Of a stretch of DNA of 64,000 nt, positions 1,921-7,049 are shown piece after piece. Location of the stretch: the NCBI GenBank assembly GCA_000165345.1, contig CM000435.1, forward strand, positions 768,001 through 832,000, given 5' to 3'. Numbering within the stretch: the stretch's first letter is position 1; each line of letters begins with the position of its first letter. The position numbers and the translations under genes are program-made. The notes beneath the pieces were generated by a model. It was not told the DNA's origin. It made no database searches and saw only the letters and a list, made by a program, of their open reading frames with translations.

Positions 1921-2006
1921 TCTTAAAAAAACGAAGTATTTGTGAAAAGTGAGCATTCGTTTAGAATTTATTTTTTACATGTCTAGCGCCAGTTACTCGA
2001 AAAAAA

Positions 2007-2957
2007 ATGATTTTAAATCAAACAAAACACATTTACATAATGAACAAATTGCTTTTTGCGATAATATTAGTTTCTTATATCTATAAGTTTGCAAATTGCT
2101 TTATTTCATCATTCTCCGGGCCTTTTATGCTGTTTTATTCAGTTTTGCGTACAATAGATGGGATGGCGGAGAATATACAACACATCAGTAATTCAATGGA
2201 TTTATCGCTACAGTCATTCTTATCCACTCAATTTCTCAGTAAAATCAGCGATAAAGTTGATAATCCAATTGTTATTGGTGCAGATTATCATGGGTCGGTT
2301 TCCCCTTGCGAATTAGATTTTCATCCTTTAATATCTAGTAATATTTTTATCGAAAGATCAATTGATAAAAATAATACAAACTATTTTCAGGTGATAAATA
2401 ACTCGTCTATAGTTCTACCCTTCACCAATAATAAAAATATTCAAATATTTGAAAGCACAAAGTATAAAACAGAGAATATTGCAGGCTTCGACTCTTTACT
2501 ATTCAAGAGAATGGATGTAAATTTGGTAAATAAACAAAATGACATAAATAATGAAAATAATTATAGTACGCTATTAGAACCGTTCCATTATGGTACAAAG
2601 ATGGTCAGTACAGAATTTAAAAACCAAAATGGAAATGGCTACGTAAACGATCTTATTCTCGCAACTAAAATCTTCAATCCATTGCAGAACTTTGAAATAA
2701 ATAATAAAAACATCAACAACCAAAATATACCAACTCGTTTGGGAAAATCTATTTCAAGCAATGAAATATTTTATAATCATCAATATGAGCTTCGAGAGAC
2801 AGAAAACACTGAATTTGATTTAAATTCATTTAGGCTATATACATATTATACAACACACTATCTTTTTCAGATTACAAGTATTTTCTCGATGGGTATTTCA
2901 TTGCATTCTCAATATAGACGTAAGTCTAGACAGAGAAAGTTGCATCTAGTAAAATAG
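2007..2957 (+). CDS. hypothetical N-rich protein, probably secreted
   Basis: 316-aa ORF with a true ATG at 2007. A second Met at 2040 is followed by a hydrophobic signal-like segment (MNKLLFAIILVSYIYKFANC). Asn-rich low-complexity sequence; no recognisable domain. Confidence 0.45.
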   Translation: MILNQTKHIYIMNKLLFAIILVSYIYKFANCFISSFSGPFMLFYSVLRTIDGMAENIQHISNSMDLSLQSFLSTQFLSKISDKVDNPIVIGADYHGSVSPCELDFHPLISSNIFIERSIDKNNTNYFQVINNSSIVLPFTNNKNIQIFESTKYKTENIAGFDSLLFKRMDVNLVNKQNDINNENNYSTLLEPFHYGTKMVSTEFKNQNGNGYVNDLILATKIFNPLQNFEINNKNINNQNIPTRLGKSISSNEIFYNHQYELRETENTEFDLNSFRLYTYYTTHYLFQITSIFSMGISLHSQYRRKSRQRKLHLVK

Positions 2958-3688
2958 TTAATATTTTATGATAATTCTATAAATTTAACGGTAACATTCC
3001 AATATAATTCTAAATTTCTTTTTCTTTTTATCAGGTGATTTTTACAACCTTTTCTTTGACATAGTTGACTTTAAATTCTTTGTACGTTTTCCAATTAATA
3101 ATACTTAAATACCATAAATATTTGAAAGGGTCTTTTCACTTATAGGCATTTGTTCTTAATATGATGAATATGGTTAGAATGCTGTACAATTACTTCAGCT
3201 AATTGTTGTACAGAAACCGATAAAATACATTCCAAATAATCTGGTTCGATTACCTCAAAGTCATTAGCCAGATAAGAACACTATGAACATACAATTTATA
3301 ATTAAAGTCACTAATTATTCTAGATATAAGGTATTATTTGCGTAATCTTATAGCTTTAGGTTATACAGATTAATATAAATCTTGTTTCTATTTTCAAACC
3401 AAACATTGAAAGTCTCGTTTTGCAAATAGAGGACAAAAAATAATTCTTAATTAAAAAGCTAGCTGATACATGTATCAATCTGTGGTACTTAAATAGATTA
3501 AATAATCAAAGTTCTGCTTAGGCATTGATAGGGCGGCATAAGTGCATCTAAAGTAAAACTTATTCAATAAACTGCTAATTTGCAAGTCATTGGCGGGATT
3601 ATATACGATACTCTCGAATCCAAAGTCTATACCCGTTCATTAAAAGTAAAAGTAAAATCAGAATTTAGATTTGGTTAAGTAGATATAA

Positions 3689-4315
3689 ATGAAATTCTAT
3701 GCGCGTTTAATTATTCTACATTATATATATTTTGTTGAAATAATAAATCATATTTTCGTAGAAGCATTGGTTAATGATGCTATTTGTAACGTTGCTTCTG
3801 GGATAATGGTAAAGGAAGCGTGCAGCGCTGTAACTAATGCAGCATGTAGTACTGTAGGAACAGTGGCATGCCAAACAGCAGGAGACATAGCCTGTCAGGC
3901 AATGGGAGAAGCAATCTGCCAAACTACAGGTAATATTGCATCAGATGCAGTGTGCCATACTGCATGCCAAATAGCATCAAATACAGCAGGGGAAGCAGTG
4001 TGTAATATTGTTTCTCAAATTTCCTCAGACTCAGTATGCGCTACTGCATGCCAAGTTGCCAGCACAGTAATAGGGCAGTCTTCTAGTGACATTTTAGCTG
4101 GTTTCGGAGCAGAGATCACAAGCTCTTTAATTTCAAAAAGTGCAAGCAGTCAACTAATGGCGGCATCAGCGGCTGCAAACTCTGTAACTATTTCAGTGAC
4201 TATTTCCACAGTAATGTCTATTCTACAAGTGATGATCTCTTTATTTGGAATGGGTTTTAATTTATATACTCATATCAGGTCTTTAAATGCTAGAAGACCA
4301 TATTATGTTCGTTAA
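3689..4315 (+). CDS. cysteine-rich tandem-repeat protein with 8-aa 'ACQTAGxI'-type repeats; signal-like N-terminus and hydrophobic C-terminus
   Basis: ATG at 3689. Hydrophobic N-terminus (MKFYARLIILHYIYFVEIINHIFVEA). About nine 24-nt/8-codon repeats, each centred on a Cys (ACSTVGTV/ACQTAGDI/ACQAMGEA/ICQTTGNI...). Hydrophobic tail (TISVTISTVMSILQVMISLFGMGF). Locally GC-richer than flanks. Confidence 0.5.
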   Translation: MKFYARLIILHYIYFVEIINHIFVEALVNDAICNVASGIMVKEACSAVTNAACSTVGTVACQTAGDIACQAMGEAICQTTGNIASDAVCHTACQIASNTAGEAVCNIVSQISSDSVCATACQVASTVIGQSSSDILAGFGAEITSSLISKSASSQLMAASAAANSVTISVTISTVMSILQVMISLFGMGFNLYTHIRSLNARRPYYVR

Positions 4316-4664
4316 ACAAGAATCTTTGGATAAGAAAATTTTTAAATTGATATCACAATGGCTAGAACTCATAATATTAGAGGGGCGATCACTTATTGGT
4401 CCCTAGAAATAAATTACAATATATAAATGACATGTTATTTAGTCTTTGATTAGTAGAGAATTTAATTTAAACCATGCAATATTTCTTTATTATTATTTTT
4501 TTGACATTAGTGCGGATTCAACGACAATACATAGGCAAGATAAGAGTTACCGCTTTGAATTTTTCTTTTTCATGTGAGTCTAATTAGTAAAAAAAAAAAA
4601 AGAAAAAGGAGAAACTATTCTTATGCGCTAATGCGAAATTCAATAAAATTGTTAATATCTAAGA

Positions 4665-7049
4665 ATGCATATACTCCAGCTTTTTTTTTTGTGCCTTTTT
4701 ATTGCTTCATACTCAGCCCTATGTAAATTTTCGAAGAAAGGTATCCCTATTCCTAACAGACATCATTTAGAAGATGCTCATAATAATATATGCTATGCAT
4801 TAATTATGTCATCTGGCTCAAACAAAGGTCCCTGGCAGGCAGGCGTCGTACGCGGTATTGCTCAAAAATACCATGATAGTGGAAAAAAACTAAGATGGGA
4901 TCTTGTAGGCGGAACTTCTGTTGGGGCAATAAATGCATTGGCTTCTCAATTTTATCCTCCTGGCGAGGAGTTGGCTTGGACCACTGAACTTGTCATACTT
5001 TGGAAGATGGCAAGACAAAAGGATATTACGACATGCAAAACTCCTTTAAAAAAAAACTATGCAAGGTGGGCAGTTTCATTTCTTAAAGGTTGGATTAGCT
5101 CTAGAAATCCATTTAGGTACTTGTGCGATAATTCTCCTGCAAGAAAGTTATTAAGGGAGCTGTTTTTACATAGAAAACATAAACAAAGACTTTTCTTCAC
5201 CAACACAATGCGTTACACGGACAGAACTGCACACGTATTTACTGAGCAATTGGAACTCGAGGAAATAATAGAGGCAGTAATAGGTTCAGGAACAATTCCA
5301 GGCATATTTCCAATCAAGTATTTGAGAAACCTTGGCTATCATGTTGATGGTGGTTTTATTGCTGCTGGCGACCTTGAAACTGCAATTAAACGATGCATCG
5401 CAGTTGGAAAGGCTAAAACTCCAAGAGATGTCGTTATTGATTTTATATCTGCAGAAGAACCACGCGAATTAAAGAGGAACACATCCTTTTTAGAAGGAGA
5501 GGATCATAGAAGTCCCCACCAACTTCCATTATACTATATTGTTTTACAATCATTGGGAATTCTTTCAGATATGGTTTCATCAACATCTGTAGTTAGACAG
5601 ATTATTTCCAAATACCCTGATGTAACTATCAGATATCTGATTCAGCCAAATGAGGAGGCTCTTATGTGGATACCAGGAGTGATGGTTGATTTTTCACAAT
5701 GGAAAAAGATGCATAGGGTTATAGAAGCAGGGTACAAATCTGGCTATAATGCGCTTCCAATTACTGGTGAAAAGCTTAAAACCATTATGGAACCTGCAGA
5801 AACACATTTTCATCCACCAGACCCTGCCGATGTTAGCTCAATATTAGAACAATACTATCAGGAATGCGAGGCAAGAAAGATATCAAGCGGTTTTAGACCT
5901 ATGGGCTTAGATGACGTTACTCTTTATCTATTAACTTCAAATGTAGAAAAAGCTATTAAGACGGTGTTTACTGAAGTTTCGCCATATAAAGATATATTTC
6001 CATATAAAGACTCTATAGCTTTTGCCACATTTATGGGTCCTTTTTTTATTACTAAGAGGTGCATTGACTTGATGCACTATTTTGCGCTTGCAAGAGGAGT
6101 AAGATCTCCCACTCAAAGCCAGTTTTACTCTTGGGTTGGCAAGTTGTGCAACATTATTGCGTCAAAAGTTAATGAATACAATACGGGCGAAATTCGTAAT
6201 CTCTCCAAACAATATTTCGTTGAAGAACTTCCGATAACTTTGCAGGATCAAGGTTCTGCAGAAATTACTTATGAATTTGGCAATCAGTCAATTCACGATC
6301 TCTCTGAAAATTTTGTTGAAAATTCTTTGGATGATGGAAAGGATATTGATTCAGACAATATCGCTACTAAAATTAGAAATTTAATATATGCATTATCCAA
6401 TGATAATAAACATATTATTGGAATGACATTCTTAGAGTTTACCAATACTAAGCGCTCGATTGCAGGACTTAGCCAATGCGTAAACATACTATTGAATGAC
6501 TTGCAGGAAAAATTAGACCAAATTAGCCCTGGTGCAGCTTTAAGGCGTGCGCTCTTAATTAAGGAAAGAAAACTGAAGAATACACATCAGACACTTAATT
6601 CTTTCGTTGTGGTACTCAAATCTCTTAATGACGACATTCAAAGGTTAAACAAAACAATGATAACAATTGACTCATTTTTAAAATCATCTAATAACATTTC
6701 CAATAAAGCAACTAAGCTTTTGAAATATATAGAGGATAAACAAAAAAAAGGTATATTTTCGGCTAAATTTGAAGATGTTATTACATTACTATCTTTATAT
6801 GAAGATTATGTTGAAAAATTACAAGGTATCCGCATTAAAGAAATTAACAGTCGTAGAATAATCGTTGACTCGAAACATTCGCAGTTAATTCTCGCAAGAA
6901 TAATTATTGCATTACGCGAACAAAATGAACATTTTCCGAAATTGATTAATGGAAAATCTACAGAAGGAATTTCAGAGTCTATTAATAGATGTATCAGTAT
7001 TGTTGATGAGCAGTATAAACCAATATTAGCAGCAAAAGATTCATCCTAG
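4665..7049 (+). CDS. patatin-like phospholipase with N-terminal signal peptide
   Basis: 794 aa. Signal-like N-terminus (MHILQLFFLCLFIASYSALC). Gly-rich oxyanion region (SSGSNKGPWQAGVVRGI), GxSxG nucleophile elbow (GGTSVGAINAL) and catalytic DGG (HVDGGFIAAG), all typical of the patatin family. Confidence 0.75.
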   Translation: MHILQLFFLCLFIASYSALCKFSKKGIPIPNRHHLEDAHNNICYALIMSSGSNKGPWQAGVVRGIAQKYHDSGKKLRWDLVGGTSVGAINALASQFYPPGEELAWTTELVILWKMARQKDITTCKTPLKKNYARWAVSFLKGWISSRNPFRYLCDNSPARKLLRELFLHRKHKQRLFFTNTMRYTDRTAHVFTEQLELEEIIEAVIGSGTIPGIFPIKYLRNLGYHVDGGFIAAGDLETAIKRCIAVGKAKTPRDVVIDFISAEEPRELKRNTSFLEGEDHRSPHQLPLYYIVLQSLGILSDMVSSTSVVRQIISKYPDVTIRYLIQPNEEALMWIPGVMVDFSQWKKMHRVIEAGYKSGYNALPITGEKLKTIMEPAETHFHPPDPADVSSILEQYYQECEARKISSGFRPMGLDDVTLYLLTSNVEKAIKTVFTEVSPYKDIFPYKDSIAFATFMGPFFITKRCIDLMHYFALARGVRSPTQSQFYSWVGKLCNIIASKVNEYNTGEIRNLSKQYFVEELPITLQDQGSAEITYEFGNQSIHDLSENFVENSLDDGKDIDSDNIATKIRNLIYALSNDNKHIIGMTFLEFTNTKRSIAGLSQCVNILLNDLQEKLDQISPGAALRRALLIKERKLKNTHQTLNSFVVVLKSLNDDIQRLNKTMITIDSFLKSSNNISNKATKLLKYIEDKQKKGIFSAKFEDVITLLSLYEDYVEKLQGIRIKEINSRRIIVDSKHSQLILARIIIALREQNEHFPKLINGKSTEGISESINRCISIVDEQYKPILAAKDSS

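Follow-up and report, generated by a model that had tools for sequence, protein, structure and literature searches.

A Cryptosporidium-restricted, predicted membrane-anchored protein with an unbroken four-residue architecture

In glycine-zipper and GASright helix pairs, exemplified by the GxxxG motif of glycophorin A and by the (G/A/S)xxxGxxxG pattern, a small residue occupies every fourth position over 2-4 turns within the membrane. The beetle proteins TmAFP and DAFP consist of 12-residue coils (TCTxSxxCxxAx) with a disulfide ladder. The COWP1-9 proteins, restricted to Cryptosporidium and relatives, are large, soluble, cysteine (Cys)-rich proteins of the secretory pathway with defined Cys-rich domain repeats, and the Plasmodium circumsporozoite protein is a lineage-specific secreted/membrane protein with a periodic centre of four-residue NANP repeats. 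Here we describe a gene that resembles each of these systems in part. It is an open reading frame (ORF) of 208 amino acids, most likely cgd7_3380, in a window of 64,000 nucleotides (64 kb) from chromosome 7 of Cryptosporidium parvum. Its ectodomain is made of degenerate four-residue units at the protein level, in the following called tetrads (positions a, b, c and d), without a recent repeat in the DNA.

Like the glycine-zipper and GASright motifs, the protein carries a small residue at every fourth position, also within its transmembrane (TM) segment. In addition, its period of 4.0 fits, by our own calculation, the right-handed crossing of ~40 degrees found in glycophorin-A-type pairs. However, its ~40 tetrads lie mostly outside the membrane, each tetrad holds a polar residue, and Cys is the second commonest ‘a’ residue after Ser. 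With TmAFP/DAFP it shares periodic Cys in a short Thr/Ser/Ala-rich repeat, but the periods differ (6/12 in TmAFP, 4/8/16 here), the TxT face is missing and the number of Cys is odd. Moreover, unlike TmAFP it is membrane-anchored, its gastric orthologues dispense with Cys and there is no sequence similarity. Cys spacings of 4, 8 or 12 and Cys counts of 11, 10 or 9 likewise depart from a TmAFP-like beta-helix. Cys richness and the secretory pathway are shared with the COWPs, from which it differs by its size of 208 amino acids, its TM anchor and its period of four residues. Finally, the circumsporozoite repeats are hydrophilic, immunodominant and polymorphic in length, with almost perfect copies in the DNA, and that protein is attached by a glycosylphosphatidylinositol (GPI) anchor, whereas the protein described here has hydrophobic, degenerate repeats in fixed number and a TM helix as its anchor.

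The preliminary description of this stretch, made from the letters alone, recognised no known family, and the searches agree. Pfam gave no match for the protein or for the set of 10 orthologues; hmmscan of the latter at E <= 1 returned none of the glycine-zipper families Gly-zipper_Omp, Gly-zipper_YMGG and Rick_17kDa_Anti. There was no match in the PDB by sequence or profile search, and no homologue outside Cryptosporidium in a word-indexed protein search, a phmmer scan of 1.84 billion representative proteins or a profile search. COWP-type Cys-rich domain repeats were not found by Pfam either, and the profile and phmmer searches yielded only direct orthologues. Thus, the layout of tetrads with a Cys stripe is not described in any family searched. 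The parts of the gene are as follows (positions in the window; dN/dS denotes the ratio of non-synonymous to synonymous substitution rates):

3689..4315, forward strand: complete single-exon coding sequence (208 amino acids plus stop), from the ORF list, orthologues and dN/dS
3689..3766, forward strand: signal-peptide-like leader, residues 1-26, hydrophobic in every orthologue and fast evolving
3785..4180, forward strand: tetrad-periodic ectodomain, residues 33-164, from composition and shuffle tests, the 90-degree moment and indels of 4 or 8 residues
3785..4051, forward strand: Cys-bearing part of the ectodomain, residues 33-121, with 11 Cys in one mod-4 register
4181..4267, forward strand: transmembrane segment, residues 165-193, SVTISVTISTVMSILQVMISLFGMGFNLY, from hydropathy, invariant columns, register continuity and dN/dS
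4268..4312, forward strand: basic tail, residues 194-208, ending in the invariant R-[RK]-P-Y-Y-[VI]-R, from alignments

The preliminary description had proposed tandem units of 24 nucleotides (nt) and eight residues. The periodicity proved to be real, but a repeat in the DNA did not. Neither Tandem Repeats Finder (minimum score 30), a check that had been suggested for the repeat region, nor a seed-based repeat finder reported a tandem repeat in the coding sequence, and the base unit is 12 nt or four residues. DNA self-identity amounts to 39-48% at lags of 12, 24, 36 and 48 nt, compared with 29% in a codon-shuffle baseline (z = 3.9 to 6.9). A minisatellite-encoded tandem repeat was rejected on these grounds and for want of copy-number variation. 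The earlier remark that the repeat region is richer in GC than its surroundings holds, with 45.6% in 3780..4110 vs 31.2% in the window.

At the protein level the pattern is clear. All 11 Cys fall into one mod-4 register, with successive spacings of 12, 8, 8, 8, 8, 12, 4, 12, 12 and 4. As these are all multiples of four, the base unit is four residues, and it is accompanied by 8- and 16-residue harmonics. A Cys at every eighth residue, as first described, is correct only for Cys45-77. The period-4 amplitude was reached by none of 5000 shuffles, and residue identity is strongest at a lag of 16 residues (z = 6.8), followed by 24 and 8. Reading the tetrads from residue 33 to 192 (40 units) gives these compositions:

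Position a: S 14, C 11, G 7, A 3 of 40
Position b: Q/N/D/E/H/K/R at 22 of 40, compared with 0 at position a
Position c: I 9, A 8, T 8, V 5 of 40
Position d: A 13, V 6, I 5, M 4 of 40

The consensus is therefore a tiny residue (Cys/Gly/Ser/Ala), a polar one, Thr/Ala/Ile/Val, and Ala/Val/Ile. Tiny residues (G/A/S/C) hold 35 of the 40 ‘a’ positions, compared with 46% overall, a value that none of 20000 shuffles attained. At the level of the motif this corresponds to the small-xxx-small pattern (i, i+4, i+8 and so on), the helicity being predicted. The hydrophobic moment of the ectodomain peaks at 90 degrees (1.18; shuffle 95th percentile 0.56) and is ~0.1 at the alpha-helical 100 degrees; a peak at 90 degrees characterises the intestinal species. 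Altogether ~40 tetrads, ~33 of them in the ectodomain, follow each other in unbroken register from the mature N-terminus into the TM helix. The register is also kept in evolution. Stepping back from the TM segment four residues at a time over 37-41 positions, 80-85% of the residues are G/A/S/C in seven intestinal species, without a phase break, compared with 42-45% in these proteins overall. The three ectodomain indels among the intestinal species measure 4, 4 and 8 residues. Within the 64-kb window, no other ORF showed tetrad periodicity.

The general layout given in the preliminary description is present in the 208-residue ORF, which has a hydrophobic N-terminus, a middle rich in Cys/Ala/Ser/Gly/Thr and a hydrophobic C-terminal segment. 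The leader is hydrophobic in 10 of 10 orthologues and canonical in C. muris and C. xiaoi. In C. parvum it is weaker, with a Glu and a His inside the hydrophobic core; according to the -3/-1 rule, putative cleavage would follow V-E-A. Residues 165-193 reach a Kyte-Doolittle hydropathy of up to 1.77, the small-residue register carries on into this segment, and Q180, S184, G187 and F190 are invariant. Together with the tail, which reads THIRSLNARRPYYVR in C. parvum and ends in RRPYYVR, the TM segment is near-invariant, is kept in 10 of 10 orthologues and forms the most constrained part of the gene. Because a conserved basic tail of 15 residues follows the hydrophobic segment, the latter is taken as a TM anchor and not as a GPI signal. 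A GPI anchor was also rejected from sequence features, namely the non-terminal position of the hydrophobic segment and a dN/dS of 0.02-0.04 for TM and tail. By the positive-inside rule the tail would be cytoplasmic. A single C-terminal hydrophobic helix followed by a positively charged tail is what is expected of a type-I protein. Leader, ectodomain of ~135 residues, one TM segment and tail thus imply a small type-I single-pass membrane protein as the predicted topology, in line with the earlier suggestion of a secreted, membrane-tethered product, for which the leader and the TM/tail unit kept in all ten orthologues speak.

To obtain the orthologues, the loci were fetched with the neighbouring patatin gene as synteny anchor from nine species besides C. 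parvum (C. meleagridis, C. ubiquitum, C. canis, C. felis, C. xiaoi, C. ryanae, C. muris, C. andersoni and C. serpentis). Seven intestinal species were compared with three gastric ones (C. muris, C. andersoni and C. serpentis). An intact ORF of ~193-231 residues lies at the same site and on the same strand in 10 of 10 Cryptosporidium species. In the fetched gastric loci it is located at:

L011 4470-5165: C. muris orthologue
L013 4462-5157: C. andersoni orthologue
L014 4465-5160: C. serpentis orthologue

Overall dN/dS is 0.11-0.20, which divides into 0.16-0.20 for the ectodomain and the much lower value of TM and tail already given. For the leader it is ~0.8-1.4 and thus near 1 (C. parvum/meleagridis vs C. 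ubiquitum); signal peptides are known to evolve fast. Ectodomain identity goes down to 40% among the seven intestinal species and to ~21% in the gastric clade, where the composition has changed wholesale. The sequence itself is reproducible. Positions 2000..4700 are base-for-base identical in six independent C. parvum contigs, so that an assembly artefact is excluded and the collapse of the repeat on resequencing, considered in the preliminary description, was not seen. An index of assemblies lists the exact protein in 60 blocks. Its length of 208 residues is the same in C. parvum, C. meleagridis and C. ubiquitum, and the C. hominis protein differs in only three residues after position 25, without an indel. 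Copy number is therefore fixed, contrary to the repeat-number polymorphism that had been thought likely.

Transcription was assessed in the supplementary tables of Tandel et al. 2019 (PMC6877471), which comprise three triplicates, i.e. sporozoites, 24-h culture and 48-h culture. With the column order inferred from marker genes in the cluster, cgd7_3380 has log2 counts per million of ~3.9 in sporozoites, ~0.4 at 24 h and ~4.3 at 48 h. A transcript, whose absence would have spoken against the gene, thus exists in these RNA-seq data. Its co-expression cluster also holds COWP6 and cgd7_4810, both likewise low at 24 h; cgd7_4810 is an experimentally validated female-specific gene. The transcript is stage-regulated, rising as sexual stages appear and being present in sporozoite RNA, a pattern that points to late or sexual stages together with sporozoites. 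In one tab of supplementary file 5, part 38, of that paper cgd7_3380 is called ‘Protein kinase domain containing protein’, and in another file ‘Uncharacterized Protein’; the kinase name is probably a labelling error. Given syntenic orthologues in 10 species, purifying selection and a transcript, cgd7_3380 is a genuine protein-coding gene, restricted to Cryptosporidium.

The two clades differ sharply in Cys and His. In the seven intestinal species every ectodomain Cys lies in a single mod-4 register (11/11, 11/11, 11/11, 11/11, 10/10, 10/10 and 9/9), and the total is odd in five of the seven. Columns 61, 69, 89, 93, 105, 117 and 121 are invariant; other Cys columns are lost singly, while positions 33 and 45 are lost together in C. 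felis. Intestinal species have 9-11 Cys and 1-5 His, whereas in gastric species the ectodomain lacks Cys altogether, His numbers 20-22, Lys/Arg are more frequent and Asp/Glu less so. In the gastric orthologues a hydrophobic period of four is retained in the N-terminal half alone (family-wise p = 0.0066), and the periodicity of gastric His was not significant (family-wise p = 0.22-0.5). As the Cys columns mostly align with gastric Ala, Ser, Asn and Lys and not with His, and given the non-significant test, a periodic replacement of Cys by His was rejected. The preliminary description had suggested a disulfide ladder or metal binding; the complete lack of Cys in the gastric clade shows that Cys is dispensable for the core function of the family. 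The gastric change in Cys, His and charge may be an adaptation to stomach acid.

How could such a chain fold? Because the stripe of tiny residues is continuous with the TM segment, which is necessarily helical, the most likely form of the ectodomain is that of a helical stalk. We tentatively propose, with somewhat less than even confidence, that this stalk is a small-residue zipper which associates with itself or pairs with the product of the upstream neighbour cgd7_3370, with interchain disulfides in the intestinal species. The small-xxx-small face of the stalk would pack very closely on another helix, either a second copy or cgd7_3370. In a parallel, in-register oligomer each Cys would stand opposite its own copy, which could yield an interchain disulfide ladder in the intestinal species, while in the gastric species association would proceed without Cys. 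The invariant Gln, Ser and Gly of the TM segment and the RRPYYVR tail would serve oligomerisation and sorting. Since each Cys would face its own copy, such interchain pairing would accommodate the odd Cys numbers and the loss of single columns that are observed. From standard helix parameters we calculate that a stripe of period 4.0 on a helix of 3.63 residues per turn gives a right-handed supercoil with ~39 residues per turn, and a helix separation of 6.6-7 Å then gives a crossing angle of ~40 degrees. Such a crossing is the known glycophorin-A-type geometry.

Several points weigh against this zipper stalk. An experimental structure, a localisation or protein-level evidence were not found. 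AlphaFold2, run with one sequence and with three sequences, returned an all-helical chain both times at a predicted local distance difference test score (pLDDT) of ~50, which is too low to inform. A period of 4.0 falls beyond what long coiled coils are known to show. A supercoil of this steepness, if continuous, would force the helices into a strong bend, with a radius of curvature of ~26 Å by our own estimate, and because this curvature is extreme a rope of 130 residues may be unfeasible. The sequence also abounds in residues that disfavour helices (beta-branched ones, Ser, Gly, Cys and Asn), and the identity peak at lag 16 is not explained by a zipper. Stapling by disulfides cannot be what the family has conserved as its function, because Cys is missing from the gastric orthologues. 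Additionally, the resemblance to cgd7_3370 is weak (hhalign probability 5%), expression of cgd7_3380 is low, and the reading of its time course depends on the inferred column order. The more extreme version of the zipper stalk would be a fibrous architecture not described before: a continuous period-4.0 rope that leaves the TM helix in register, wound tightly and right-handed, laddered by interchain disulfides in the intestinal species and His-rich and Cys-free in the gastric ones as an acid adaptation. In our judgement this version is decidedly unlikely.

Other explanations of the ectodomain were weighed against the same data. It might have no fixed fold and be an extended, possibly O-glycosylated low-complexity spacer, in which the period of four is a relic of ancient 12-nt slippage and only TM and tail are functional. 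The strong constraint on TM and tail (0.02-0.04, vs 0.16-0.20 in the ectodomain) agrees with this, as do the low gastric identity of ~21% with its replaced composition, the low AlphaFold2 confidence, and a Ser plus Thr content of ~20% of the protein, which has no N-glycosylation sequons. We nevertheless regard a spacer as unlikely on balance. The position pattern and the Cys register are kept in seven species despite identities down to 40%, the ectodomain is under purifying selection, A/V/I/L/M/F make up ~42% of it (58/137), too hydrophobic for typical disorder, and no repeat remains in the DNA. By analogy with beetle TmAFP, whose Cys lie 6 apart in 12-residue coils, the chain could instead wind into a narrow beta-solenoid whose coils have 16 residues, four on each of four sides; Cys 8 apart would then lie on opposite sides of a coil and make an internal disulfide ladder. 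This would account for the ranking of the identity lags (16, then 24 and 8), for the turn-like a-b dipeptides (Gly/Ser/Cys followed by Asp/Asn/Glu/Gln), for the many beta-branched residues with no Pro and almost no aromatics, and for the spacing of 8 across Cys45-77. However, orthologue indels comprise 4 and 8 residues and never a whole 16-residue coil, Cys occur in odd numbers and drop out one at a time, the gastric orthologues have none at all, and the register extends into the TM helix. AlphaFold2 shows no strands (at low confidence), and there is neither a TxT-type face nor similarity to beta-helix families, which makes a solenoid quite improbable. A further proposal, compatible with a zipper, is that intestinal Cys and gastric His are metal ligands, the protein being a membrane-tethered surface for metal binding or buffering. 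Both residues are classical metal ligands and the split between the clades is sharp (9-11 Cys and 1-5 His vs 0 Cys and 20-22 His). Yet gastric His is not significantly periodic, it is mostly not His that stands opposite the Cys columns, CxxC and CxC motifs are missing, and adaptation to gastric pH explains the shift in charge and His equally well. We therefore consider metal binding very improbable.

A different kind of alternative concerns the gene model and involves the upstream neighbour, together with an intron annotated across both genes:

2040..2957, forward strand: cgd7_3370, with signal peptide, conserved N-terminal block, TM segment and basic tail
2920..3761, forward strand: pseudo-intron of the C. 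hominis model, with donor GTAAGT at 2920-2925 and acceptor AG at 3760-3761
3592..3598, forward strand: GGCGGGA box, candidate promoter element of the target's own, ~95 nt 5' of its ATG

The sole match in the phmmer scan was a 425-residue C. hominis model, OLQ18002.1. This model (also PPA64038.1), named ‘putative integral membrane protein’, joins cgd7_3370 and cgd7_3380, and accordingly the target could be not an independent gene but the last exon of cgd7_3370. The two ORFs can indeed be joined in frame from a perfect GTAAGT donor at 2920 to an acceptor at 3760-3761 that is rich in pyrimidines, and both lie on the same strand with 731 nt between them. We give this model hardly any credence. C. 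meleagridis, C. ubiquitum and C. canis lack the donor, and C. canis also lacks the acceptor. The tail of cgd7_3370 beyond the donor, RKSRQRKLHLVK, is conserved with its stop codon as far as C. muris, every target orthologue has its own start codon and signal-like leader, and a conserved GGCGGG box stands 5' of the target ATG. An intron of 842 nt would also be unusually long for Cryptosporidium. Given the missing donor, the conserved tail and stop, the separate leaders and the box, the C. hominis fusion is a mis-annotation. C. parvum, C. meleagridis and C. canis share the GGCGGGA box, and C. ubiquitum and C. xiaoi have a variant of it; the box resembles the E2F-type motif reported upstream of Cryptosporidium genes. 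The spacer between the target and the upstream gene measures ~1.4 kb in the gastric species vs 0.6-0.75 kb in the intestinal ones.

cgd7_3370 is itself restricted to the genus, with its start annotated for 316 or 305 residues. Its N-terminal block, CFISSxSGPFxxxYSIxRTIDGMxENIQHISNSMDLSLQSFLS followed by ADYHG, is very conserved. No credible Pfam match was obtained, the two matches seen lying below the curated cut-offs. Profile comparison aligned the last 27 columns of cgd7_3370 and of the target end to end (hhalign; E 0.0077, probability 5%), pairing ISLFGMGFNLY..R[RK]PYYVR of the target with ITSIFSMGISL..RKLHLVK of cgd7_3370. Within the 64-kb window, cgd7_3370 alone has a similar C-terminal tail. 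This hints that cgd7_3370 is a paralogue or partner of the target, or shares a sorting/oligomerisation module with it.

Regarding the locus as a whole, an exact-sequence look-up places the window on C. parvum chromosome 7, matching ~0.81 Mb in CP141124.1. The window is AT-rich (GC content as above) and carries long intronless ORFs of eukaryotic type, among them a protein kinase, an SNF5-like protein, an MFS transporter and a patatin-like esterase. Rfam and tRNA scans of the whole window were empty. The target ORF is annotated as a gene in many assemblies and sits between the ‘putative secreted protein’ of 305/316 residues (2007/2040..2957) and the secreted patatin-like esterase (4665..7049). 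The patatin gene is cgd7_3390 (PMC10629705) and the topoisomerase gene Topo I is cgd7_3350 (PMC12811158). Five consecutive genes fill the five consecutive numbers from cgd7_3350 to cgd7_3390, and because gene order matches the order of identifiers, the upstream neighbour is assigned as cgd7_3370 and the target most likely is cgd7_3380. A published table run of cgd7_3380, 3390, 3410 (SNF5-like), 3430 (kinase) and 3450 (MFS) agrees with this assignment, and a literature search found no mention of cgd7_3380 in paper texts. The esterase cgd7_3390 (4665-7049) has alternative annotated starts giving 794 or 786 residues, with 747 in C. meleagridis, and a poly-A run at ~4589-4600 lies ahead of it. Single-nucleotide polymorphisms specific to Bangladeshi human isolates have been reported for this gene (PMC10629705).

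Cryptosporidium ranks among the major causes of childhood diarrhoea, and orphan proteins make up much of its secreted and membrane proteome. cgd7_3380 is such an orphan, found genus-wide and absent elsewhere, with a strictly maintained four-residue architecture, and our analysis also exposes a mis-fused C. hominis gene model. Since the gene turns on with the appearance of sexual stages and oocysts, its product is a candidate constituent of the membranes of transmission stages or sporozoites. An unbroken period of 4.0 residues over a length of ~150 is at odds with classical coiled coils; if the zipper fold is true, it would extend glycophorin-type helix packing to a long extracellular stalk. 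The Cys-rich intestinal and the Cys-free, His-rich gastric forms represent a natural experiment on the adaptation of a surface protein to stomach acid.

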